This document shows positions 3,934 through 58,236 of a stretch of 64,000 bases of DNA, piece after piece. The stretch's first letter is position 1, and the number at the start of each line of letters is the position of its first letter. This DNA is from an uncultured bacterium. Lineage in GTDB: Bacteria; Methylomirabilota; Methylomirabilia; Methylomirabilales; CSP1-5. The stretch lies in assembly GCA_964558395.1 (NCBI GenBank), contig CAZLDS010000003.1, positions 13,830 through 77,829 of the forward strand, written 5' to 3'. Under the pieces are notes generated by a model, which saw only the letters and a list, made by a program, of their open reading frames with translations, was not told the DNA's origin and searched no databases. A program made the translations under genes and the position numbers.

Positions 3934-4068
3934 GTTCAGAGTTCATGGTTCATGGAAGTCAGTCATGCCAAAAAGATCCGTTTTTGTTTTTCTCCCTGAG
4001 CGCTGAACTCCGAACCATGAACGGCTTACGTTTGAGCCCTCAACTCCAGACCCTCAACCCTGAGCCAC
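3934..4068. repeat. composite heptamer-repeat hairpin element (GTTCA/TGAAC family) plus a second CCCT-type heptamer run
   Basis: Left arm is GTTCAGA GTTCATG GTTCATG (3934-3954). The core is T-rich with a CAAAAA/TTTTTG mini-hairpin. Right arm is CTGAACT CCGAACC ATGAAC (4003-4022). A further run GAGCCCT CAACTCC AGACCCT CAACCCT GAGCCAC follows at 4034-4068. Confidence 0.85.
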
Positions 4069-4070
4069 GT

Positions 4071-4715
4071 ATGATTGCCATTATCGACAGTGGGATCGCC
4101 AACCTCCGGAGCGTCGAGAAGGGATTCGAGAGGGTCGGGGTTCCGGCGCGCGTGATCCGGGAGCCTGCCGCGCTGCGCGACGCAGCCGGGATTGTCCTCC
4201 CGGGAGTAGGGGCGTTCTCCGATGGGATCGCCACGCTGGAAGCGGCGGGGTTTATTGATCCTCTGTTCCGGGAAATCGAATCTGGGAAAGCCATCCTGGG
4301 GATTTGTCTGGGCCTGCACTTTCTCTTTTCGGAGAGCGAGGAATTCGGCCTACATAAGGGCCTCGATCTGATCCGCGGCCGGGTCCGTCGCTTCCCCGGA
4401 ACCGCCCCGTCCTCAGTCCTCAGTCCTGAGTCCTCTCTCCTGAAGGTTCCCCACATGGGGTGGAATCAGGTGGTCCTCAAAAGAGAGGCCCCAATCATGA
4501 AAGGGATCCTGGACAACTCGTATTTTTACTTCGTGCACTCCTACTACGTAGAGCCAGAGGAAGAGGGCACCGTTGCCGGTATCACAGAATACGGCATCCC
4601 TTTTACCTCCATGATCTGGAAGGACAACCTCTTCGCGACCCAGTTTCATCCGGAAAAGAGCCAAACCCTGGGCCTCCAGATTCTCGCCAATTTTGGTGCG
4701 CTGGCGCAGAAGTAG
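4071..4715 (+). CDS. hisH: imidazole glycerol phosphate synthase, glutamine amidotransferase subunit
   Basis: MIAIIDSG..., GICLGLHFLF (Cys nucleophile), VPHMGWN and FHPEKS motifs. Start is set at ATG 4071, because the track ORF start at 3945 reads through the repeat element. Confidence 0.9.
   Translation: MIAIIDSGIANLRSVEKGFERVGVPARVIREPAALRDAAGIVLPGVGAFSDGIATLEAAGFIDPLFREIESGKAILGICLGLHFLFSESEEFGLHKGLDLIRGRVRRFPGTAPSSVLSPESSLLKVPHMGWNQVVLKREAPIMKGILDNSYFYFVHSYYVEPEEEGTVAGITEYGIPFTSMIWKDNLFATQFHPEKSQTLGLQILANFGALAQK
4409..4443. repeat. intragenic tandem heptamers GTCCTCA GTCCTCA GTCCTGA GTCCTCT CTCCTGA within hisH
   Basis: Period-7 repeat read directly from the sequence. In the hisH frame it is translated as SSVLSPESSLL. 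Confidence 0.8.
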
Positions 4716-4717
4716 AG

Positions 4718-4818
4718 CTGTCACCAGCCCCCTGTCAGCCGTCAGCATCTATATAATAGTAGTCGACTGTCCGCATGGATAAAGATTCTTAGCTGACTCC
4801 TAATAGCTGATCGCTCAA
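4718..4818. repeat. heptamer-repeat hairpin element, GTCAG(C)/(A)GCTGA family
   Basis: Left arm is CTGTCAC CAGCCCC CTGTCAG CCGTCAG (4718-4745). The core is AT-rich and contains TATAAT (4752-4757). Right arm is AGCTGAC TCCTAAT AGCTGAT CGCTCAA (4791-4818). Confidence 0.8.
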
Positions 4819-4829
4819 GAGATGACGTT

Positions 4830-5567
4830 ATGTTGATTATTCCAGCCGTCGACATAAAAAATGGGAAAGCGGTTCGCCTGACCCAAGGGGATCCGAACCG
4901 AGAAATGGTGTACGGAGATGATCCTGTTGGGGTTGCAGAAGCGTGGGAGGCGAGAGGCGCGCCGCGTCTGCATATCGTCGACCTGGATGGAGCATTCGCA
5001 GGGAGTCCGAAGCAGCTAGGACTGATCAGCGCGGCTGCGCGGGCGGTCAAGATTCCGATTCAGGCGGGGGGTGGGCTCCGAACGCTGGAGTCGGTCACTG
5101 CACTCTTCGATGCCGGCATCGCCACGGCGGCCCTCGGGACCTCTGCTATTATGAACCCGCGTTTTCTGGAAGAGGTGTGCACGGCCTATCCGCGCCGGAT
5201 CATCCTCGCGATTGATGCGAAAGAGGGACGGGTGGCAGTCAAAGGGTGGCGCGAGCTTTTGGATCATTCGGTCGGGGCCGTGGTCGAGCGGGTGGCATCA
5301 CTCGAGCTCGGTGCCATTCTCTACACCGATATCCTGAAGGACGGAACAATGGAAGGACCCGATTTTGAGGGATTGCAAGCCGTAGTCACACAGAGCCGTC
5401 ACCCGGTCCTCGCCTCGGGCGGCATCGCGTCCCTGGAAGATATTCGGCGGCTGTGTGCCATGAAAGGTGTGGCGGGCGCCATCGTCGGCAAGGCCCTGTA
5501 CAGCGGCGCGATCGAGCTCGAGGCGGCGCTCCGCGTCGTGGCCGCGGAAACGGTTCGCCGATGCTAG
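4830..5567 (+). CDS. hisA: ProFAR isomerase (1-(5-phosphoribosyl)-5-[(5-phosphoribosylamino)methylideneamino]imidazole-4-carboxamide isomerase)
   Basis: 245 aa with [25 protein letters not shown] and [11 protein letters not shown] motifs. Confidence 0.92.
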
Positions 5568-6382
5568 CAAAACGGATCATCCCCTGCCTTGATGTGAAAG
5601 ATGGGCGTGTGGTCAAGGGGACTCGGTTCGTAGACCTTCGAGACGCGGGGGATCCAGCGGAGGTTGCGGAGCGGTACGATCGGGAGGGGGCTGATGAGCT
5701 CGTCTTCCTCGACATCACCGCCTCGGCCGAACGGCGAAAGATCATAATCGGGGTCGTGGAGCGGACGGCAGAGCGGGCGTTCACCCCGCTGACCGTGGGC
5801 GGGGGGATCCGGGATTTGGAAGACATCCGGGCCATCCTTCTGGCTGGGGCGGATAAGGTCTCTCTCAACACCGCAGCCGTTCAGAATCCGAAGCTGATAC
5901 GCCAGGCGGCTGAACGGTTCGGCAGCCAATGCATCGTTCTCGCCATCGACGCCAAGCGGAGGGAGTTCAGGGTTCAGAGTTCAGGGTTCAGAGAAATACC
6001 AGACACTGATCCATTAACCATGAACCCTGAACTGTCGTGGGAGGTGTATATTCACGGTGGTCGCACACCGACCGGACTCGAAGCGGTACAGTGGGCTGAG
6101 GCGGGAGTGGCGTCTGGGGCGGGGGAGATCCTCCTGACCAGCATGGATCGTGACGGGACGCGGGACGGGTACGATTTGGAGCTTACTGCAGCGGTTGCCG
6201 AGCGTGTGGGCGTCCCAGTGATCGCCTCGGGGGGTGCCGGGACGATGGCGCATCTCTATGAGGCCTTTGCCTTCGGAAAAGCCGATGCGGCCCTTGCCGC
6301 GTCCATCTTTCACTTCCAGGAAATCTCGGTCCCCGAGGCGAAAGCATATCTCAGTGGGCGGGGCATCGTCGTGCGCCCCTAG
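5561..6382 (+). CDS. hisF: imidazole glycerol phosphate synthase, cyclase subunit (carries a 23-aa repeat-encoded insertion)
   Basis: [37 protein letters not shown] and ASGGAG motifs. ATG 5561 overlaps the hisA stop (ATGCTAG). At 273 aa it exceeds the roughly 250 aa that is typical. Confidence 0.92.
5965..6034. repeat. GTTCA/TGAAC heptamer hairpin element inserted in frame in hisF
   Basis: GTTCAGG GTTCAGA GTTCAGG GTTCAGA lies at 5965-5992, followed by a 28-nt spacer. TGAACCCTGAAC at 6021-6032 is the exact reverse complement of 5965-5976. Confidence 0.9.
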
Positions 6383-6399
6383 GGCCGCAGAGCGGCCCT

Positions 6400-6516
6400 G
6401 GTTCATAGTTCATAGTCCACGGTTGAGAGTGAACGGCTCATGGATCAGGGTTCACGGTGGCGAGTAGGGCCTGGGAGATCCGTTCCTGTTCTTGCTCTGA
6501 ACCCTGAACCCTGAAC
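6400..6516. repeat. GTTCA/TGAAC heptamer hairpin element
   Basis: Eight phased heptamers lie at 6400-6455: GGTTCAT AGTTCAT AGTCCAC GGTTGAG AGTGAAC GGCTCAT GGATCAG GGTTCAC. After a spacer comes CTGAACC CTGAACC CTGAAC at 6497-6516. Confidence 0.9.
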
Positions 6517-6537
6517 GATGACGAAGGGAGGAGGATT

Positions 6538-26927: not shown

Positions 26928-29390
26928 TTGGTTAAGCGGCGCACGAAAGAAGGGAAGACCGTGACCGGCGTGACATTTGAGGGGCAGGGGCCCCTGGGAT
27001 CAGAGAGAAAATTACCCAAGGCTGTCCCTGTCCTTCCTGTGCGGGATATGGTCGTCTACCCATTTATGATCCTTCCGCTCTTCGTGGGGAGGGAAAAGTC
27101 GATTCGGGCGGTGGAGGAGGCACTCAGCCGGGATCGCCTCATTCTCCTGGTCGCCCAGAAGGACGCCGAGGTGGAGGATCCGAGTCCCCGAGAAATCTAC
27201 CCGGTCGGCACGGTGGTCATGATCATGCGGGTTCTCAAGATGCCGGATGGTCGCGTGAAGGTCCTGGCGCAAGGGCTTGCGCGGACCCGGATCATGGAAT
27301 TCCTCCGGCAAGAACCCTACTATGAGGCCCGGATCGCTGAGATCCTCGATGATGAAGTGCCAGCAATGGGGACAGAACTCGAGGCGCTGATTCGGAGTGT
27401 CAAAGAACAGGTCTCCCGAAGTGCCTCCCTGGGCAAGCAGATATCCCCCGATATTCTGGTGATCATCAACAACCTGGATCACCCTGGACGTCTGGCCGAT
27501 CTGGTCGCCTCTCATCTCGAGCTCAAGGTGGAGCAGGCGGTCGAGATCCTAGAGATAACCAATCCCGAGGAGCGCCTGCGCCGCATCGGCGACTTCCTCG
27601 GAAAGGAACTCGAGCTCTTGGAGGTGCAACAGCGGATCCAGGTCCAGGCCAAGGAGGAAATCGATAAGACACAGCGGGAGTATTACCTCCGCGAACAACT
27701 CCGGGCTATTCAAAAGGAGTTGGGGGAAACCGACGAACGCCAACAGGAGATCGAGGAGTTTTCGACGAAGATCGAAAAAGCCAAGATGCCGCCACAGGTG
27801 GCCGCCGAGGCGAAAGGCCAGCTCAATCGTCTCGCGCGGATGCACCCGGACGCCGCGGAGGCGTCAGTGGTTCGGACGTACCTGGAATGGCTCATCGAGC
27901 TCCCTTGGAGGAAGCAGACCAAGGATAAGATCGAAATCGAGCGGGCCGGGAAGATTCTGGATGAAGACCATTACAATCTGGAAAAGGTCAAGGAACGGAT
28001 TCTGGAGTATTTGGCCGTTCGAAAGCTGAAGAAGAAAATGAAAGGCCCCATCCTGTGCTTTGTGGGACCGCCGGGGGTCGGCAAGACATCCCTCGGACGC
28101 TCCATTGCCCGGGCACTCGGTCGGAAGTTCATCCGGATCTCGCTTGGGGGCGTCCGGGATGAAGCGGAGATCCGGGGCCACCGCCGGACATACATAGGGG
28201 CTCTCCCTGGTAAGATCGTCCAGGGGATCAAGACCGCAGGGACCAATAACCCTGTCTTCATGATCGATGAAGTTGATAAGGTTGGGGCAGATTTCCGGGG
28301 GGATCCCTCGGCAGCCCTCCTGGAGGTCTTGGATCCAGAACAGAACGTGTCCTTCACCGATCATTACCTCGGCGTGCCATTCGACCTCTCGAATGTCATG
28401 TTCATCACGACGGGGAACATGGCCGATCCGATCATTCCTGCGCTGAAGGATCGGATGGAGATCATCGAGATTTCGGGGTACACCGAAGAAGAAAAACTCC
28501 ACATTGCCCGAAGGTATCTGATCCGCCGGCAGCTCAAAGAGCACGGCATCACCGAGCGGCATTTGCAACTCACGGACGAAGCCGTACTCAAGATCATCCG
28601 CGGGTACACCCGGGAGGCGGGACTCAGGAATCTGGAAAGGGAGATCGCCACGGTCTGCCGGAAAATCGCCAGGGAGATCGCAGGCGGGAGGACGGAAATC
28701 ACCAAGGTCACTGGCCAGAATCTGCACCGCTTTCTGAAAGCGCCCAGGTATCTCCCGGAACCTGAACAGGAACGGGACGAGGTCGGTGTAACTTCTGGGC
28801 TCGCCTGGACTCAGGCGGGCGGGGATATTATGTACGTCGAAGCGACAGTGATGAAAGGGAAAGGACAGCTGTCCCTCACGGGTCATCTGGGCGAGGTGAT
28901 GAAGGAGTCGGCCCAAGCAGCCTTGAGCTATGCGAGGGCCCGGGCCCCGGAGCTGCGGATCAAAGAGGACATCTTCGGCAAGGTGGATATCCACATCCAT
29001 GTGCCCGCAGGGGCGATCCCAAAGGACGGACCCTCGGCTGGGATAACCATGGCCACGGCGCTCGTGTCTGCCCTCACTAAAGTTCCTGTCAAGAGAAGCG
29101 TTTCCATGACCGGCGAGCTGACGTTGCGTGGTAAGGTCCTGGCCGTCGGAGGGATCAAGGAGAAGGTGTTAGCCGCCCGTCGCGGTGGGATCACGACGGT
29201 GATCCTCCCAAGGAAGAACGAGAAGGATGTGAAGGAGCTCCCCAAAACCATCAGGCGCGGCATGCACTTTGTCTTTGTCGAGAACGTGGATCAGGTACTG
29301 GAGGTGGCCCTGGTCAAGCCGGTGAGAGAGAAGAGCCAGATCAGGGTTGCTGGCCCAAGGCGGGCGACGCAGCCCGTGACCGTACACTAG
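26928..29390 (+). CDS. lon: ATP-dependent Lon protease
   Basis: LON N-domain, Walker A GPPGVGKTS and catalytic PKDGPSAG. 820 aa. TTG start after GGGAGG. Confidence 0.95.
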   Translation: MVKRRTKEGKTVTGVTFEGQGPLGSERKLPKAVPVLPVRDMVVYPFMILPLFVGREKSIRAVEEALSRDRLILLVAQKDAEVEDPSPREIYPVGTVVMIMRVLKMPDGRVKVLAQGLARTRIMEFLRQEPYYEARIAEILDDEVPAMGTELEALIRSVKEQVSRSASLGKQISPDILVIINNLDHPGRLADLVASHLELKVEQAVEILEITNPEERLRRIGDFLGKELELLEVQQRIQVQAKEEIDKTQREYYLREQLRAIQKELGETDERQQEIEEFSTKIEKAKMPPQVAAEAKGQLNRLARMHPDAAEASVVRTYLEWLIELPWRKQTKDKIEIERAGKILDEDHYNLEKVKERILEYLAVRKLKKKMKGPILCFVGPPGVGKTSLGRSIARALGRKFIRISLGGVRDEAEIRGHRRTYIGALPGKIVQGIKTAGTNNPVFMIDEVDKVGADFRGDPSAALLEVLDPEQNVSFTDHYLGVPFDLSNVMFITTGNMADPIIPALKDRMEIIEISGYTEEEKLHIARRYLIRRQLKEHGITERHLQLTDEAVLKIIRGYTREAGLRNLEREIATVCRKIAREIAGGRTEITKVTGQNLHRFLKAPRYLPEPEQERDEVGVTSGLAWTQAGGDIMYVEATVMKGKGQLSLTGHLGEVMKESAQAALSYARARAPELRIKEDIFGKVDIHIHVPAGAIPKDGPSAGITMATALVSALTKVPVKRSVSMTGELTLRGKVLAVGGIKEKVLAARRGGITTVILPRKNEKDVKELPKTIRRGMHFVFVENVDQVLEVALVKPVREKSQIRVAGPRRATQPVTVH

Positions 29391-29406
29391 TTGCAGCCAG
29401 AGGCGG

Positions 29407-29512
29407 GAGACCAGAGACTGAGACTGGAGACTAGAGACTGGACCAGGAAGAGACGATCGTGCTTTCCCGTCTCCGGTCTCCTGGCCCTCGTCTCATTGCT
29501 TTAGCTGGTCTC
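29407..29512. repeat. GAGACTG/GTCTC heptamer hairpin element
   Basis: GAGACCA GAGACTG AGACTG GAGACTA GAGACTG GACCAGG lies at 29407-29447. The complementary arm CGTCTCC GGTCTCC TGGCCCT CGTCTCA ... GGTCTCC lies at 29468-29512. Confidence 0.85.
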
Positions 29513-29553
29513 CGATTGCCGATCGCTGTGCGAGAGATTGGAGGTGGCGCAGG

Positions 29554-31260
29554 TTGCCACAAAGTGAGTGGGTCCGAATCATTTCCCTCGGTGGCCTGGG
29601 GGAAATCGGGATGAACATGTTCGTGGTCGAGACGGCCGATGACATGGTTGTCATCGACGCCGGGTTGATGTTTCCCGATGAGGAAATGCTGGGGATTGAT
29701 GTTGTGATCCCCGACTTCACCTATCTGCTGGAGCACCGCGAGAAGGTTCGTGGACTCATTCTTACCCACGGGCACGAGGACCACACGGGTTCTCTTCCTT
29801 TTGTCCTGAAGGAAATGCCGATCCCCATATACGGGACACCCCTGTCCCTGGGCCTGGCGGCGGAGAAGATCCGGGAGCACGATCTTGAACCTGACCTCCG
29901 GCCGGTCGTTCCCCGGGAGAGGTTTACTTTGGGTCACCTGCGGGCGGAGTGTATGCGCGTTTGCCACAGCATTCCAGATGGCGTGGGCGTTGCCCTGGAG
30001 ACACCGGCAGGGCTCGTTGTCCACGCCGGGGATTTCAAGTTTGATCCCACGCCGGTGGATGGGGAGCTCACCGACTACCACAAGTTTGCCGAATTGGGAG
30101 ACCGCGGGGTTCTGGTGCTCCTCTCCGACTCGACGAATGCTCTGCGGCCTGGGTTTACCCCGTCTGAGCGGACCGTTGGTCAGGCCTTGGAAGAGATCTT
30201 TCGAGCGGCCAGACGGCGGATCATCGTTGCTTGCTTTGCCAGCCACATTCACCGGATCCAACAGATCCTAGACGTCGCGGCGAGGATGGGACGAAGGGTT
30301 GCCGTCCACGGCAAGAGCATGGTCGCGAACACCCGGGTTGCTGCGGATACCGGATACCTGAAAGTTCCCGCTGGTGTCCTCGTTCGCCTGGACGAACTGA
30401 GGCAGCTGTCCCCAGGCGAGACGGTGATCATTGCCACGGGCTCGCAGGGCGAGCCGCTGTCCGCGATCGCTCGGATAGCAGCGGGAGAGCATAGGCAGAT
30501 TGAGGTCACCCCGGGAGACACGGTGATCTTCTCCGCCCGGGTGATTCCGGGAAACGAGAAGTCCATCGCGCGGACCATCAACCAGCTCTTCAAGCGGGGG
30601 GCGGAGGTCATTACCGAGGAACACGCCCCTGTGCATGTGTCGGGCCACCCGTGCCAAGAAGAACTCAAACTCATGCTGAATCTAACCCGACCGAAGTTCT
30701 TTGTCCCAATCCACGGGGAGTACCGACACCGCCATCACCATGCGCGGCTGGCGGCAGCTCTCGGGATTGCCCGGGACCATATTTGTCTGGCGGAGAATGG
30801 GGATATCCTAGAGTTTGCGCCCGACAAGGGAGGAATCGTTGGCAAGGTAGGAGCGGGGCGGGTCTTCGTGGATGGGAAGGGCGTGGGTGATGTGGGGGAT
30901 GCCGTGCTGCGTGAGAGACAGCATCTGGCGAGGGATGGGATGGTGGTGGTCGTGATAGGTCTCCAGACGCAAACCGGAGCGGTGGTGGCAGGACCTGATA
31001 TCATCAGTCGAGGGTTCGCGCATCTACCGGATCAAGAGGTGCTCTTTGATGCGGCTAAGCGGTTGGTGAATGAGATCCTGGCCGGCTCGCCGGAGGAGGA
31101 ACGAAGGGATGCGGCGATCCTGAAGGAGCACGTGAGGGCAGCCGTGCGAAAGTACATTCAGAAAACCTTTGATCGACGACCGATGGTCGTGCCGGTCATC
31201 CTCGAATTGGGGGGGGAGGAGAATGATCGTTCAGAGTTCATGCTTCAACGTGGGGGGTGA
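29554..31260 (+). CDS. rnj: ribonuclease J
   Basis: Metallo-beta-lactamase HGHEDHTG, beta-CASP and C-terminal domains. 568 aa. TTG start after GGAGG. Confidence 0.9.
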   Translation: MPQSEWVRIISLGGLGEIGMNMFVVETADDMVVIDAGLMFPDEEMLGIDVVIPDFTYLLEHREKVRGLILTHGHEDHTGSLPFVLKEMPIPIYGTPLSLGLAAEKIREHDLEPDLRPVVPRERFTLGHLRAECMRVCHSIPDGVGVALETPAGLVVHAGDFKFDPTPVDGELTDYHKFAELGDRGVLVLLSDSTNALRPGFTPSERTVGQALEEIFRAARRRIIVACFASHIHRIQQILDVAARMGRRVAVHGKSMVANTRVAADTGYLKVPAGVLVRLDELRQLSPGETVIIATGSQGEPLSAIARIAAGEHRQIEVTPGDTVIFSARVIPGNEKSIARTINQLFKRGAEVITEEHAPVHVSGHPCQEELKLMLNLTRPKFFVPIHGEYRHRHHHARLAAALGIARDHICLAENGDILEFAPDKGGIVGKVGAGRVFVDGKGVGDVGDAVLRERQHLARDGMVVVVIGLQTQTGAVVAGPDIISRGFAHLPDQEVLFDAAKRLVNEILAGSPEEERRDAAILKEHVRAAVRKYIQKTFDRRPMVVPVILELGGEENDRSEFMLQRGG

Positions 31261-31270
31261 ACTGTGAACC
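31229..31270. repeat. compact GTTCA/TGAAC heptamer hairpin spanning the rnj-ftsK junction
   Basis: Units are GTTCAGA GTTCATG CTTCAAC GTGGGGG GTGAACT GTGAACC. GTTCAGAGTTCA (31229-31240) against TGAACTGTGAAC (31258-31269) is an 11/12 inverted repeat. Confidence 0.85.
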
Positions 31271-33501
31271 GTCCAAGGGGGCTCACGAAGCACACTCGAG
31301 CTTTATCCACACTGTTGCGCCATCCGAAATCGAGAGAGGTCGTAGGGCTTCTCGTGATGGCCTTCGCTCTTCTCTCCCTGGTAAGTCTGATCTCCTTCAG
31401 CCCGTACGATCCCTCGTTTTTCCACTACACCTCGCAGAAGGGGGCGGCGCGCAACTTCGGAGGACTGGTAGGAGCCCACCTAGCTGGAGATCTGCTCGGC
31501 GTCGTGGGGATCGCCGCCTTCTTGCTCCCTCCGGCGCTCTTCTGGGTTGGCTTCGCCCTTGTCAGTGGGGGAAAGCTCCAGCTCCGGACCGTCGGGGTTG
31601 TCGGCTTTGGGCTCCTCCTGACGTCAACCTGTCTCCTACTCACCCTGCTCGAGCATGAGAGCTTCGAACTCGCGTGGCGCGGCGTGGAGCCTGGGGGGTT
31701 TCTGGGCGTCCTGCTTTTCGATGCGCTTCGCCCTGCACTCGGTCGCTTCGGGATGTACCTGACGACACTAACCGGGATACTGCTCTTCGGGGTTTTGGTG
31801 TCGCAGGGTTCCTTGGTTGGGCTTATCCGTTCCCTTCGGGAGATCATCGCGTGGCTCGGTCGTCACCTCGCTAGGATTTTTGCGGCGACCCGGCGATGGG
31901 TCGCTGCGGCGTCCATGCAGGAGGCGATCGTCCCAGCGCGGAAAGCGCCACGCCCTGAAAGGCCGGTGCGGAGCCCTCCTCCGAAGAGAGTCCAGGAAAG
32001 TGCCGAAGAGGCGCCGGTGACGATGCGAAGGGTCCCGAAGGCCAGAGAAGACCATACATTGCCTCCCCTCGCCCTTCTCGATGGCTCATCCGCAGCTTCC
32101 TACGGACCCTTGGATCACGAGCGCGAGGAGAACAAACAGACACTGGAAAGAACCTTGGGAGATTTCGGGGTTGAGGGGCGGGTCACGGAAACCCAATCAG
32201 GACCGGTGATTACCCGGTATGAGATTGAGCCCGCCCCAGGGGTGAAGGTCAACCGGATCGTCGGTTTGGCGGATGACCTGGCGTTGACCCTCAAGGCCTT
32301 GAGCGTTCGAATCGTTGCTCCCATTCCCGGGAAGGCAGCGGTTGGCGTAGAGATTCCCAACAAGAATCGGGCGATGGTCCAGCTCAGGGATGTGCTGGCT
32401 TCTGAGGCGTATGAAGAATGTGCGTCTCCCCTACCGATCGCGCTGGGGAAAGATACGTCGGGCGATCCCTTCGTGACAGACCTCGTTCAGATGCCGCACA
32501 TCCTGATAGCGGGAGCCACCGGGAGCGGGAAGAGCGTCTGTATTCACAGTATCATTCTTAGCGTGCTGTATCGGTCCACGCCCCAGGCCGTGCGATTACT
32601 GTTAATCGATCCCAAACGGGTCGAGCTCTCTGTCTACAACAATATTCCACACCTGGTGGATAATCCCCTTATCCCCGAGACGAATGGAAGAGAAAAGGCC
32701 TGGCAGGTTGTGACGGACGCCCGGCAAGCCGCGAAATGTTTACAGCTGATCGTGAAACACATGGAAGCACGATACAAGCTCTTTGCAGAGGTCGGTGCGC
32801 GCTCGATTGAGGCCTATAACAACGCCCGGCCCGAGGAAAGGCCCCAGCTCGCGCATCTCGTGGTGATCATCGATGAGCTTGCCGATTTGATGCTTTCGGA
32901 GTCCTCCGTGGTGGAAAATGCCATCGCGCGGTTGGCCCAGATGGCGCGAGCGGTGGGAATTCATCTTGTGCTCGCCACACAAAGGCCTTCCGTGGATGTG
33001 ATCACCGGGGTGATTAAAGCGAATTTTCCCGCGAGAATTTCCTTTCAGGTGTCCTCGAAGGTCGATTCTCGCACGATTCTCGACACCAACGGGGCGGAAC
33101 AATTACTCGGCGGCGGTGATATGCTGTTTCTGCCTCCCGTAAGTTCGAAGCCCACGCGGATTCACGGGTGCTACGTATCGGATCAGGAGATTGACCGCGT
33201 GGTCGATTTCCTGAAGGCGAAGGACGCCTTGGAGCCATTTCCGTGGGTGCTTGAGATCACTGAGGAGCGGATGAGCGACGCCCTGGACATCCCCGATGAA
33301 GAAGAGGCCTTGTACCAAGAGGCCGAGCGGATCGTTCGCCAGACGGGTCAACCCTCAATCTCGCTGCTCCAGAGGCGACTCCGGATTGGGTTCAACAGGG
33401 CGGGTCGCATGATTGATCGCATGGAACGTGAAGGCATCGTGAGTCATACCGATGCACGGGGGCACCGGATGGTCCTCAAGCCCTGGTCGCCTGGCGCCTA
33501 A
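31264..33501 (+). CDS. ftsK: DNA translocase FtsK/SpoIIIE
   Basis: N-terminal TM helices, Walker A GATGSGKS, and a C-terminal gamma winged-helix (PSISLLQRRLRIGFNRAGRMID.ME..GIV). Confidence 0.93.
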   Translation: MNRPRGLTKHTRALSTLLRHPKSREVVGLLVMAFALLSLVSLISFSPYDPSFFHYTSQKGAARNFGGLVGAHLAGDLLGVVGIAAFLLPPALFWVGFALVSGGKLQLRTVGVVGFGLLLTSTCLLLTLLEHESFELAWRGVEPGGFLGVLLFDALRPALGRFGMYLTTLTGILLFGVLVSQGSLVGLIRSLREIIAWLGRHLARIFAATRRWVAAASMQEAIVPARKAPRPERPVRSPPPKRVQESAEEAPVTMRRVPKAREDHTLPPLALLDGSSAASYGPLDHEREENKQTLERTLGDFGVEGRVTETQSGPVITRYEIEPAPGVKVNRIVGLADDLALTLKALSVRIVAPIPGKAAVGVEIPNKNRAMVQLRDVLASEAYEECASPLPIALGKDTSGDPFVTDLVQMPHILIAGATGSGKSVCIHSIILSVLYRSTPQAVRLLLIDPKRVELSVYNNIPHLVDNPLIPETNGREKAWQVVTDARQAAKCLQLIVKHMEARYKLFAEVGARSIEAYNNARPEERPQLAHLVVIIDELADLMLSESSVVENAIARLAQMARAVGIHLVLATQRPSVDVITGVIKANFPARISFQVSSKVDSRTILDTNGAEQLLGGGDMLFLPPVSSKPTRIHGCYVSDQEIDRVVDFLKAKDALEPFPWVLEITEERMSDALDIPDEEEALYQEAERIVRQTGQPSISLLQRRLRIGFNRAGRMIDRMEREGIVSHTDARGHRMVLKPWSPGA

Positions 33502-33530
33502 CGGCAACGACCCTCTGTCGGGGGATCGGC

Positions 33531-34172
33531 GTGAAGCTTAGCAGACGGTTCCTGACTCTCAGTCTTGTTGCCGTCGTACTGACTCCTCAGGCGCAAGGGG
33601 TGGTCGAACGGATTCAGAGCTTTTATGGGGGAACCAAAGATATCGAAGGTCGGTTTTCCCAGCGGGTCGAGCTGGCGATGGGACAAGTCGAGAACGCCCG
33701 GGGGTCTTTTTACCTGAAACGGCCTGGGATGATGCGCTGGGAGTATGAGCGACCTGAACGACGCTTGCTCGTGACCGACGGGTCCACGATGTGGGCCTAC
33801 ACCCCGGCAGATCGGCAGGTCATTGTCCAGGACCTGAAGTCGGCACTGGCTTCCGTTCCCTTCGACTTCTTGGTGGGGGCGGGGAAGTTGACCGACCATT
33901 TCATCGTGCAACGGGTCACGAAGCACGGAGATTGTTACCGTATGGTGCTGACGCCGCAACGTCCTGATCCCCAGGTGCGCGAGTTGGAGATGGAGGTGGA
34001 AGCGACCACGTTGCATATCCGGTCCCTGGCCCTCCAAGACCCGTACGATAATCGGACGCTCATGCACTTTTCAGATCTCCAGGTCAATAGCGATCTCCCT
34101 GCCGATCTCTTCTCCTTTGTCCCGCCGCCCGGGGTCAAGACACTCCGCGCAGAGGATCTGTATCCCCACTGA
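33531..34172 (+). CDS. lolA: outer-membrane lipoprotein carrier protein LolA
   Basis: Signal peptide, then F.Q........G.FYLKRPG.MRWEY..P.....V.DG...W.Y.P....V, a LolA pattern. Confidence 0.8.
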   Translation: MKLSRRFLTLSLVAVVLTPQAQGVVERIQSFYGGTKDIEGRFSQRVELAMGQVENARGSFYLKRPGMMRWEYERPERRLLVTDGSTMWAYTPADRQVIVQDLKSALASVPFDFLVGAGKLTDHFIVQRVTKHGDCYRMVLTPQRPDPQVRELEMEVEATTLHIRSLALQDPYDNRTLMHFSDLQVNSDLPADLFSFVPPPGVKTLRAEDLYPH

Positions 34173-34342: not shown

Positions 34343-36313
34343 GTGATTGTTCCCCCGGTAAGAGACTATGTTATGTGGGACATAGTGAAACGGTTCATGG
34401 AGGCCATGCCCGTGGACCGCTGCGCGATCACCCTGTGTACCCCCGACGCCGCCACGGGCCTCGTTGTCATTGGATATGACCGGTGCAAGGAAGATCCCTG
34501 GGTTGAAGGGTTCAATCTGTCCATGGACCGGTACCCAGAGATTCGCCGAGTCCTCGAGACGCGGCAGCCTCTCGTGGTGCCGAACGTCGCCGAGGAACCC
34601 GTGCTTTCTGACATCAAGGATCTGCTGATCGCTCTTCCGGTTCGCTCGATGTTGGTGGTCCCGCTCTTCAGACAGGAGCGTAGCGTAGGCGTCGTGAGCG
34701 TGAGCAGTCGGGATCCGGTTCAAGCCTTCACCCAAGATCAAATTGAGTTGTGTCAGAGTTTGGCGAATCAGGCGGCCCTTGCGCTTGACAAGAATGTTCT
34801 CTTTCAGGAGGCTCAGCAGCGGGCGAATAAGCTCCAGGCGCTCATCCATGTGTCAAAGCGGATGACCGCCTCTTTGAACCTCCAGGACGTCTACGACTTT
34901 GCGGTAAAGGCAGCCGCGGAGTTCTTGGAGGTCCCATGCGTGTGGCTCTGGGTGCCAGACGAGGAGACGCGCGAATTACACGTTCGGGCCCGGTGCGGCC
35001 TGGAAGAGCTTGCTGGGTTGATGGGAGACCGGGTCCCGTATGATCGGGGGGTCTTTGGAAAAATCGTGGAGCGCGGGGAACCTCAGTACATCGCCGACGT
35101 AAAGCAGGAGTCGCTCTGGCTGAGCAAACGGTTCTTGGAACAGGCAGAGATCATCTCCTTCGCCGGTATTCCACTGATGAGCGAGGGTCGCGTCCTCGGG
35201 ATCCTCTCAGTTTTCACTCGCCGCCGGCGTCTCTTCGGTCCAGATGAGCGGAGCTTGATGAGTGTCTTTGCCAGCCAGGCGGCCATCGCTATTGTCAATG
35301 CCAGGGCATACCAGCAGATCCAGTGGTATGCTTCCACGGTGGCAGAGTTGTACGAGGCCGCCACGCAGGTGAGTGGTTCTCTCGACTTGGACGAAACCCT
35401 TCAAAAGATCGCTCGGGGTGCCGCGGCCTCAATGGACGCGGTCTCGAGCACCATCATCCTGTTCGATGAGTTTGGCGAGGTGACGCATGTCGTTGACTGG
35501 GAGGTTGGACAGATCGAGGTGCGGAAGGATGGCATCTCGCGCCAGGTGTGGGGGACCGGGCGCCCCGTTGTTCTGCCCGATTTCGCGAAAACTCCTAGTG
35601 GGATGGTCAATCCCCGGCTGTTGGCGCTTGGGCGGGCAGCTGGGGTCTGTCTCCCGTTGCAGGTCCGAGAGCGGATCCGGGGAGTGATGTGGGTCCACTA
35701 CAATGAACCACGCCGGATCGTCGAGGAAGACCTACACCTCCTCGCCTCCTTTGGCAACCAGGCTGCCATGGCGATCGAGAACGCTCGCCTGTTTACGGAG
35801 ACGCGCCGGCTCGCCAACACTGATGCATTGACTGGACTGTACAATCACCGGTATTTCTATCATCTCCTCGATGCAGAGGTGAAGCGCGCTCGTCGCTACG
35901 GCCGCTCCCTTTCCCTGATCATGCTGGACATAGACGAGTTCAAGGAGTTCAATGACCGATACGGGCATCTCGCGGGCGATGAGGCCTTGCGTTCTCTTTC
36001 GCAGATCCTTCGGAAGAATTCCCGGCGGGTCGATACCGTCGCGCGCTATGGCGGGGAGGAGTTTGCGATAATCCTCCCGGAAACCGACCTCGCCCAAGCT
36101 GGTGTCCAAGCGGAGCGACTTCGTGTATCGGCCGAAGAACATCAGTGGCCGGAAGGTCATCTCACGATTAGTCTCGGGGTGGCCGCCCTGACGCCCGAAA
36201 TGACCAAGGTGGAAGATTTGGTCCGAGATGCGGACCGGCCCCTGTACCACGCCAAGGCGGCCGGGCGCAACCAGGTATGCCTCAGTTCACCTCTTCCCCG
36301 TGAACCCCATTGA
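34343..36313 (+). CDS. GAF-GAF-GAF-GGDEF diguanylate cyclase
   Basis: Three GAF-like blocks are followed by DALTGLYNHRYF...RYGGEEFAIILPE. An RxxD (RRVD) lies 5 residues before GGEEF, where an I-site sits. Start is GTG 34343 or ATG 34373. Confidence 0.88.
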   Translation: MIVPPVRDYVMWDIVKRFMEAMPVDRCAITLCTPDAATGLVVIGYDRCKEDPWVEGFNLSMDRYPEIRRVLETRQPLVVPNVAEEPVLSDIKDLLIALPVRSMLVVPLFRQERSVGVVSVSSRDPVQAFTQDQIELCQSLANQAALALDKNVLFQEAQQRANKLQALIHVSKRMTASLNLQDVYDFAVKAAAEFLEVPCVWLWVPDEETRELHVRARCGLEELAGLMGDRVPYDRGVFGKIVERGEPQYIADVKQESLWLSKRFLEQAEIISFAGIPLMSEGRVLGILSVFTRRRRLFGPDERSLMSVFASQAAIAIVNARAYQQIQWYASTVAELYEAATQVSGSLDLDETLQKIARGAAASMDAVSSTIILFDEFGEVTHVVDWEVGQIEVRKDGISRQVWGTGRPVVLPDFAKTPSGMVNPRLLALGRAAGVCLPLQVRERIRGVMWVHYNEPRRIVEEDLHLLASFGNQAAMAIENARLFTETRRLANTDALTGLYNHRYFYHLLDAEVKRARRYGRSLSLIMLDIDEFKEFNDRYGHLAGDEALRSLSQILRKNSRRVDTVARYGGEEFAIILPETDLAQAGVQAERLRVSAEEHQWPEGHLTISLGVAALTPEMTKVEDLVRDADRPLYHAKAAGRNQVCLSSPLPREPH

Positions 36314-36333
36314 TTCCCCGTGAACCCCATTGA
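36294..36333. repeat. perfect 20-bp tandem duplication TTCCCCGTGAACCCCATTGA x2
   Basis: Copy 1 (36294-36313) ends with the cyclase TGA stop. Copy 2 (36314-36333) is identical. Confidence 0.95.
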
Positions 36334-57520: not shown

Positions 57521-57739
57521 AGCGGGGTCCCCGAGGAGCGCATCTCAGGGGATTCCCGGACGACACCCGACTCGAAAGTATCGAAGGACCCCCAGACGGC
57601 CGCATTGGCCCCCCACGGACCGGTCGTCTTCCATCAGTGCTGGACCCACGGATTAAGCAGCCTTACCTCTGCAGGGTCGCGGTCATCTTGCCGATGGTTG
57701 CCAACTGAAGGCTTTCCTGATCACACCCCAACCCCCGTT

Positions 57740-57830
57740 GGTTCATGGTTTGTGGTTCATAGTTCATGGGGTAAGGTAAAACCCGGACTCGGACTCCCTC
57801 TCATGAACCCTGAACCTTGAATCATGAACG
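57740..57830. repeat. GTTCA/TGAAC heptamer hairpin element
   Basis: Left arm is GGTTCAT GGTTTGT GGTTCAT AGTTCAT (57740-57767). After a spacer comes ATGAACC CTGAACC TTGAATC ATGAACG (57803-57830). Confidence 0.85.
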
Positions 57831-57912
57831 GCAGGTTCGCTATGCTAGGCTCAAAGCGGAGGCACGTCGACATGCATATCCTCATGCGACGCCTTGTCCC
57901 ACTGGGCATCGC

Positions 57913-58236
57913 TGGGCCTTAGGAGGAAAGGACCTGCGAGTGATGCTCAGGCATCTACTGCCGAATATCCTTGGACCCATTCTGGTCGAGGCCAGCTTTG
58001 GATTCGCGACGGTGATCATCGCCGAGGCGAGTTTGAGCTTCCTCGGGCTAGGAACCCAGCCCCCCACTCCCAGTTGGGGCCAGATGCTCAACGAAGCGCG
58101 GCAGTATCTCTTGGTCGCTCCGCATCTGACGCTCTTCCCCGGTCTCGCCATCGTGGTGACCGTCATGGGCTTTAACTTCCTGGGGGATAGCCTCAGGGAT
58201 CTCTGGGATCCGAGGGGCAGGCAGTCACCCCTCTGA
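57913..58236 (+). pseudogene. 3' fragment of an oligopeptide/dipeptide ABC permease (DppC/OppC type)
   Basis: WALGGKDLRVMLRHLLPNILGPILVEASFGFATVIIAEASLSFLGLG.QPP.PSWG.ML...R.Y....P....FPGLAI....MGFN.LGD.LRD..DPR matches only the last roughly 100 aa of such permeases. No N-terminal two-thirds, partner permease, ATPase or SBP gene is nearby. Confidence 0.7.

Follow-up and report, generated by a model that had tools for sequence, protein, structure and literature searches.

A miniaturised repeat hairpin between rnj and ftsK

The window analysed here is a 64-kb stretch of DNA (contig CAZLDS010000003.1) from an uncultured bacterium of the Methylomirabilota, and the element in question lies at the junction between two of its genes, rnj (encoding RNase J) and ftsK. 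Positions 31229-31270 hold a miniaturised and partly decayed member of a family of heptamer-array hairpins that is spread over the whole genome and has the form (GTTCANN)n, loop, (NNTGAAC)n. Taken as a whole, the locus is probably best explained by an old element that decayed into the ends of both genes, with a heptamer GTG serving as the ftsK start and with the translation of ftsK coupled to that of rnj.

The 42 nt read as six phased heptamers (GTTCAGA GTTCATG CTTCAAC GTGGGGG GTGAACT GTGAACC), and GTTCAGAGTTCA (31229-31240) is complementary to TGAACTGTGAAC (31258-31269) at 11/12 positions. Both features had been described in the original prediction, an earlier reading of the window, and both were confirmed. 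Only heptamers 1, 2, 5 and 6 are good family units; the third (CTTCAAC) is a decayed GTTCAGA, as shown by the relative L089, and the fourth (GTGGGGG) makes up the loop and the ribosome-binding site. The motif GTTCANNGTTCA occurs 13 times in the window versus 0.04 expected, and both arms of the junction hairpin match it exactly (31229-31240, and 31258-31269 on the minus strand). In 79 unrelated control loci there were 3 matches in 979 kb. With up to 2 mismatches to GTTCAGAGTTCA, 19 matches were found in the window versus 4.3 expected. The GTTCANNGTTCA matches cluster in five loci, the junction copy being the fifth and smallest. Each of the four larger hairpins comprises 2-4 tandem GTTCANN units, then a loop, then 2-4 NNTGAAC units. 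They are:

3934-4023, no strand assigned: family copy A, a (GTTCAKR)3 ... (TGAACNN)3-4 hairpin in the hisB-hisH spacer
5963-6032, no strand assigned: family copy B, (GTTCAGR)4 ... (TGAACNN)2, translated in frame inside hisF
6399-6517, no strand assigned: family copy C, a hairpin between the hisF stop and the next gene
57739-57829, no strand assigned: family copy D, a (GTTCATR)4 ... (TGAACNN)4 hairpin

Tandem Repeats Finder reported period-7 arrays at 3941, 5965, 6007, 6401, 6497, 57739 and 57802. The junction copy itself has at least two tandem GTTCANN units with an inverted NNTGAAC array within ~120 nt, the two forming a hairpin, and it descends from a full-size copy (present in L086, with intermediates in L095 and L097).

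We considered whether the junction hairpin could be a chance inverted repeat or an assembly artefact, unrelated to any repeat family. The element is indeed short, with 12-nt arms, and its two middle heptamers are degenerate. Against this stand the motif counts given above and the full-size orthologous element in L086, together with the fold prediction of 31220-31280 that had been proposed earlier: when run, it returned a single hairpin of -24 kcal/mol (z = -3.3) that was equalled by 1/200 shuffles and beat the other 199. An assembly artefact was ruled out by the presence of the same 42 nt in two independent assemblies of relatives, L091 and L101, and a chance repeat by the motif statistics, the control loci and the shuffles. 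This explanation therefore retains a negligible probability.

The genes rnj and ftsK share a reading frame, and their junction reads GGGGGG TGA ACT GTG. The left arm and the loop are translated in frame as the tail of rnj, with GAG TTC ATG giving EFM. The earlier claim that the element encodes the RNase J tail ...DRSEFMLQRGG and its TGA was borne out, the rnj stop being the right-arm TGA; the GTG at 31264-31266 was likewise found where it had been placed, in the last heptamers, and the ftsK open reading frame (ORF) starts there, making it the putative initiation codon. The features of the junction, all on the plus strand, are as follows (aa, amino acids):

29554-31260, +: rnj (RNase J) coding sequence, 568 aa, TTG start (ORF list, translation, Pfam)
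31210-31257, +: derived 16-codon RNase J C-terminal extension GGEENDRSEFMLQRGG, past the ancestral end ...PVI[IL]E[VL] (end of the Pfam match, ends of homologues)
31229-31242, +: left arm GTTCAGA GTTCATG, read (R)SEFM in rnj; identical to the first 14 nt of the L086 full-size element
31243-31249, +: third left-arm heptamer CTTCAAC, decayed, forming an inner G-U-rich stem with the G-run (GTTCAGA in L089, GCTCAGA in L093; fold)
31250-31256, +: loop heptamer GTGGGGG (GGAGG in relatives: GAGGAGG in L089, GTGGAGG in L092/L102 and L093)
31252-31257, +: G-run, Shine-Dalgarno-like, 6 nt before the GTG; it also codes the last two Gly of rnj
31257-31270, +: right arm GTGAACT GTGAACC (the same 16 nt, GGTGAACTGTGAACCG, end the L086 full-size element)
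31258-31260, +: rnj stop TGA, within the first right-arm (fifth) heptamer (sequence, ORF, translation)
31264-31266, +: putative ftsK start GTG, within the second right-arm (sixth) heptamer, 3 nt past the rnj stop and in the same frame
31264-33501, +: ftsK coding sequence, 745 aa (ORF list, translation, Pfam)
31275-31281, +: AAGGGGG, the remnant of a ribosome-binding site serving a codon-8 ATG in relatives (CGAGGGG, GGAGGG or CGGGGG there)
31285-31287, +: ACG at ftsK codon 8 (ATG in all 13 relatives examined there)

The rnj product is identical to the database protein P0274 and matched the Pfam families RNase_J_b_CASP (1e-49) and RNase_J_C (2e-27), and it also has an RMMBL domain; the RNase_J_C match ends at residue 552 of the 568-aa protein. 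The ftsK product matched FtsK_4TM, FtsK_alpha, FtsK_SpoIIIE and FtsK_gamma. The same-frame arrangement of the two genes is also found in L089, and in L093 with a TAA. Because TGA ACT alone separates the frames, UGA readthrough would yield an RNase J-FtsK fusion; nothing points to a leaky context.

Remodelling of the RNase J C-terminus

The rnj-ftsK junction was gathered from 14 related Methylomirabilota (NC10) loci. A genome-contig search with RNase J returned mostly Clostridia and one useful locus (L001), and a protein search with the FtsK N-terminus gave few close matches. The gene order lon-rnj-ftsK-lolA was kept wherever the flanks sufficed, out to the 68%-identical outgroup L098. In a neighbour-joining tree of the RNase J core that included this outgroup, L095, L093, L097, L089, L092, L091 and the window formed one monophyletic clade, all of whose members have extended tails, with L086, L001/L082, L100, L085 and L090 placed outside it. 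L101 and L102 were not in the tree; by RNase J identity they stand beside the window and L092, respectively. Identity to the window is 96% for L091 and 94% for L101.

RNase J ends in ...PVIIEV* at 552 aa in L086, L100 and the outgroup L098, as well as in many database homologues, and this is its ancestral C-terminus. In L086, a full-size GTTCA-type hairpin with 4 left and about 6 right units lies at the rnj-ftsK junction, 17 nt downstream of the intact ancestral rnj stop. Since the first 14 nt (GTTCAGAGTTCATG) and the last 16 nt of this element are the ends of the element in the window, the window copy is an internally deleted orthologue. Intermediate sizes, differing by deletions between heptamers, are present in L095 and L097, and right-arm remnants are kept in L085, L090 and L001. 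In every member of the window clade the old rnj stop is gone and rnj reads into the element, with the new stop falling variously in the loop or in the right arm. The resulting RNase J tails are:

window: ..SEFMLQRGG*
L089: ..TEFMVQRGG*
L093: ..SEFMAQSGG*, with TAA at the position of the window TGA
L095: ..AEFMVPSE*
L097: ..AQFTVHGPA*

A different solution was found in L092/L102, where one G fewer in the upstream G-run places the ribosome in the +1 frame, the tail reads ..RMIVQSSCVNVEGEL*, and rnj terminates at the second right-arm heptamer, whose TGA overlaps the ftsK GTG as GTGA. This +1-frame tail is present in all seven members (five full-length, two fragments) of the 90% protein cluster, from JGI and Logan assemblies. 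Translation of this DNA in the +1 frame by a sister lineage shows that no particular peptide is conserved in the RNase J tail, which is probably functionally neutral in itself. Whatever the frame, the right arm ends translation, since 7 = 1 mod 3. The length of the G-run shortly before the element (31210-31224) varies among close relatives, the frameshift being compensated in L101 (GGRTND versus GGEEND) and uncompensated in L092/L102. This tract resembles a hot spot for slippage, with the two-frame stops of the element absorbing the consequences.

The original prediction had attributed the remodelling of the gene ends to insertion of the element. The RNase J tail is indeed encoded by the element and derived, and the comparison of RNase J C-termini that had been suggested showed that relatives without the repeat lack the tail, the opposite of the conserved tail that would have spoken against the claim. 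Insertion, however, was not the remodelling event, because the full-size hairpin of L086 leaves the ancestral rnj stop intact. The tail came later, through loss of the ancestral stop and shrinkage of the element.

A repeat hairpin of another type is seen in the outgroup L098, where a GCTCATG/CATGAGC heptamer-like hairpin (4670-4730) occupies the spacer just past the rnj stop; the motif GGTTCTTGG..AGGAGC is common to L098, L100 and L001. A repeat hairpin at this junction may thus be older than the GTTCA-type unit.

The ftsK start codon

An ATG is present at ftsK codon 8 (window numbering) in all 13 relatives examined, with a purine-rich motif (CGAGGGG or GGAGGG, for example) in front of it. For L090 and L100, which have no in-frame start further upstream, the codon-8 ATG must be the start. 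Seven codons before codon 8, most other relatives have a GTG or ATG, in frame and contained in ..TGAACC, and in the relatives of the window clade a canonical GGAGG precedes this upstream codon by 7 nt (loop heptamer GAGGAGG or GTGGAGG). The gene callers picked the equivalent codon in L091, L101, L102 and L095. Both the window and the independent assembly L091 have ACG at codon 8, and L101, with the identical 42-nt hairpin, still has ATG. In the window, no canonical start other than GTG 31264 is available from the in-frame stop at 31258 to the invariant block L14-S15-T16...RHPK. The heptamer GTG, with GGGGGG 6 nt upstream, therefore appears to be the only plausible canonical ftsK start here, and its obligatory use would be very recent, specific to the window and L091 and caused by the change of ATG to ACG. 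The earlier proposal that the repeat supplies the ftsK start codon thus probably holds for this genome, where no other canonical start is available, with the reservation that the relatives also have the codon-8 ATG.

Initiation could also take place at the near-cognate ACG of codon 8 or at the TTG of codon 18, in which case the hairpin would have no role in initiation and would be a structured 3' tail of rnj or a leader of ftsK. The older motif AAGGGGG is retained 3 nt upstream of the ACG, the codon-8 ATG is the sole possible start in two relatives, and the GTG and its ribosome-binding site are mostly base-paired. ACG is, however, a very poor initiator in the bacteria that have been studied, and loss of the ATG would be most tolerable had initiation already been taking place at the upstream codon. 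A G-run stands at the optimal 6-nt spacing from GTG 31264, and in sister genomes this motif is a canonical GGAGG. The TTG of codon 18 is unlikely because FtsK residues 14-26 (LST..RHPK.REV) are conserved in all relatives, and a start there would remove the invariant L14-S15-T16. We regard initiation at either of these codons as very improbable.

A closer competitor takes GTGAACC to be native ftsK leader or coding sequence beside which the hairpin developed, through insertion at a neighbouring look-alike target or through local slippage and inverted duplication seeded on GTGAACC, so that the repeat only abuts the start. The anatomy would be the same and only the direction of descent would differ. 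Hairpin-less relatives do have GGGTGAACCGT (L001, L081), GGAACCGT (L090) and GGTAATCGG (L100) at the homologous position, L001, L090 and L100 keeping a GTGAACCGT-like sequence without the hairpin; in addition, each spacer has its own heptamer unit (GAGACNN, CAGACCA, AAACCCNNN), hinting at local generation of arrays. On the other side, the codon at the start position in L095 is an ATG in ..AACCATGAACC, exactly like the internal array units of L086 (TGAACCATGAACC), so the base that completes the start codon is set by the array. The right arm of the hisF copy is read ATG AAC C.. ('MN'), the same reading as the FtsK 'MNR'. L085 has two or three right-arm units at the position, and the outgroup L098, with a quite different FtsK N-terminus, has no GTGAACC. 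The L095 and hisF readings indicate that the start codon would belong to the array, and descent from a native leader is, in our judgment, unlikely.

Hairpin fold and predicted coupling of ftsK to rnj

In a 220-nt context, the ribosome-binding site had a predicted unpaired probability of 0.15 and the GTG one of 0.33. This agrees with the earlier suggestion that the hairpin would occlude the ftsK start region in the mRNA, through predicted pairing of both sites. The stop and start codons lie a few nt apart and the ftsK ribosome-binding site is inside the rnj ORF, as in a coupled pair. Because the stem is predicted to bury the ribosome-binding site and the GTG, and because the GTG follows the rnj stop by 3 nt, ftsK translation is most likely coupled to that of rnj, either by coupling proper or by reinitiation.

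Translational coupling by unmasking of a start site is classically illustrated by the coat-replicase pair of phage MS2 and by rpmI-rplT of E. coli. As in these cases, the downstream ribosome-binding site of the junction is contained in the upstream ORF, 3 nt separate stop from start, and the start region is predicted to pair with coding sequence that precedes it. It differs in that the classic masking structures are gene-specific sequence and the one predicted to act here is a repeat-family hairpin.

Sequence divergence gives some indication of constraint. The junction shows 2 differences in 200 nt relative to the 96%-identical relative L091, versus 3.6% across rnj, and 88/100 nt are changed between the same two genomes in the hairpin of the lon-rnj spacer. 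The mini-hairpin is apparently constrained, at least by its coding, ribosome-binding and start roles. Several observations weigh against our reading of the junction, in addition to the AAGGGGG motif and the GTGAACCGT-like sequences discussed above. The reduced divergence of the junction reaches only weak significance (P of about 0.03 on a Poisson estimate), and coding sequence is involved in any event. Compensatory changes were found at 0/20 stem pairs in a comparison of 5 sequences, and 89% of the cells were paired through plain sequence conservation. Substitutions in L092 and L093 weaken the stem, so that the short junction segment has a minimum-energy fold that does not contain it, and because of this weakening the hairpin is not clearly under selection.

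The lon-rnj spacer holds a tandem-repeat hairpin in every relative (window 29406-29485; L091 1-135; L092, L093, L097, L001 and L098). Its units differ (GAGACNN, CAGACCA, AAACCCNNN, 8-mers), so that the position is stable and the sequence fluid.

Proposed history of the junction

The comparison of relatives gives the following sequence of events. Before this group of Methylomirabilota diverged, an orthologous element was already in place in the rnj-ftsK spacer, with RNase J at first ending in ...PVIIEV*, upstream of it. In the window clade the stop was then lost and the element grew shorter through deletions between units, so that rnj came to read through the left arm and the loop and to end on the TGA carried by every right-arm TGAAC heptamer; as each heptamer shifts the frame by one, two units close two reading frames. 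The loop heptamer turned into a Shine-Dalgarno site (GGAGG in relatives, GGGGG here), and the GTG of the last heptamer is in frame with ftsK, seven codons before the older ATG. In the lineage of the window itself the ATG changed to ACG, leaving the heptamer GTG as the presumed start. A ribosome finishing rnj would melt the stem, sit over the GTG at termination and then translate ftsK.

The locus traces, one step after another, the incorporation of a selfish or structural repeat into two core genes: the repeat replaced a protein C-terminus, provides fail-safe stops in two frames, evolved a ribosome-binding site in its loop and finally, after the older ATG was lost, apparently captured the start of the next gene. 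If the predicted coupling is true, ftsK expression in this lineage is tied to rnj translation through a repeat-derived hairpin. For the annotation of Methylomirabilota genomes, it matters that gene ends beside these repeats are labile and that start codons may lie inside the repeats.

Other identities considered and comparison with known repeats

No covariance-model match with E <= 1 was obtained from Rfam 15 in 29000-33600. A scan of 31200-31300 for an intrinsic (Rho-independent) terminator was negative, the stem being followed by GTCCAAGGGGG with no T-run, and a promoter scan at the rnj-ftsK junction found none. A transcription-factor or LexA-like GTTC box was set aside, as the same heptamers fill the spacers of the his operon and are translated inside hisF. 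A literature search found no description of heptamer-hairpin repeats in Methylomirabilota.

The nearest described repeats are of three kinds. The STRR of cyanobacteria and the TAACTGA direct repeats of Beggiatoaceae and Cyanobacteria have 7-nt units in 2-6 tandem copies, mostly intergenic and near gene ends (PMC4679880), and the short, mainly intergenic tandem 7-nt arrays of the window are like them in this respect. The unit here is GTTCANN and the host belongs to the Methylomirabilota, and neither TAACTGA nor the cyanobacterial STRR unit sequences are matched. In the TAACTGA sets the repeats are direct, and just one inverted case has been reported (PMC4679880), unlike the arrays here, which are inverted pairs forming hairpins; copies in the window are, moreover, translated in frame inside genes, and one would supply a start codon.

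Rickettsia palindromic elements (RPE) and other intragenic MITEs (miniature transposable elements with inverted repeats; ERIC, BOX, Anabaena MITEs) are palindromic, form hairpins and are translated as in-frame additions to housekeeping proteins without destroying them (PMC10969869), and the hisF copy and the RNase J tail resemble them as in-frame translations within host genes. RPE is about 150 bp long, with a family consensus, a conserved encoded peptide and no heptamer substructure (PMC10969869). It has not been reported to give two adjacent genes their stop, ribosome-binding site and start (PMC10969869), as the element here apparently does. Of the features of MITEs, the arms are inverted repeats; terminal inverted repeats and a target-site duplication were not definable, and there is no clean empty site among the close relatives. 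L001 (TCACGG/GTGAACCGT) compared with L086 offers a possible empty site with no evident duplication.

REP, BIME and REPIN sequences are short, abundant, imperfect palindromes between co-transcribed genes, often just past stops, and fast-evolving (PMC3333891, PMC3116915, PMC3733652); the element is likewise a short palindrome between genes. REP sequences are single palindromes of 20-40 nt with a GTAG or CGTC tag and a link to the RAYT transposase (PMC3333891, PMC3116915, PMC3733652), whereas 31229-31270 has no GTAG or CGTC at its ends and its arms are tandem 7-mers. The building of a repeat into gene ends is clear at this junction but not unprecedented.

Heptamer hairpins elsewhere in the window

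The broader heptamer-hairpin phenomenon is a more novel lead than the junction itself, and the hairpins in hisF and hisH, together with the hypervariable spacer hairpins, form a wider pattern that merits genome-wide study. One tentative extension, which we think rather doubtful, is that heptamer-array hairpins are a phylum-wide and so far undescribed repeat class of the Methylomirabilota, maintained by a dedicated process; this would be, for example, a hairpin-targeting recombinase or a heptamer-periodic binding protein. Fixed positions may have been held for a long time (the rnj-ftsK junction, the lon-rnj spacer and one HisF loop in nearly all homologues), and unit sequence and copy number may turn over fast, even between 96%-identical genomes, with the arrays routinely read by ribosomes. 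With a unit length of 7 = 1 mod 3, a TGA in one of the arms and an ATG or GTG where units meet, the heptamers would by their geometry be ready-made sources of stops, starts and ribosome-binding sites.

Other spacers of the window hold hairpins of different heptamers, such as the GAGACNN hairpin at 29406-29485 between lon and rnj. In hisF (ORF 5453-6382), the copy B hairpin is translated in frame and adds 25 residues that lack a counterpart in solved HisF structures. Nearly all Methylomirabilota HisF homologues have an insert of variable length at the same site (proteins of 257-285 aa); some of these inserts are built on another heptamer unit (CPKSEVQSPKSES...RTSDLGL), and others retain the peptide of one arm alone, left or right. 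In hisH (ORF 3945-4715), GTCCTSA heptamers at 4407-4443 are read in frame (PSSVLSPESSLL). The hairpin at 3934-4023 upstream of hisH is open in the hisH frame, and its last right-arm heptamer contains an ATG in that same frame.

The ORF at 57817-58236, which abuts hairpin D, corresponds to no more than the C-terminal third of a protein resembling ABC-transporter permeases, and this gene may be truncated at the repeat. A perfect 20-nt tandem duplication (TTCCCCGTGAACCCCATTGA x2) was also found at 36294-36333, across the stop of the ORF at 34343-36313.

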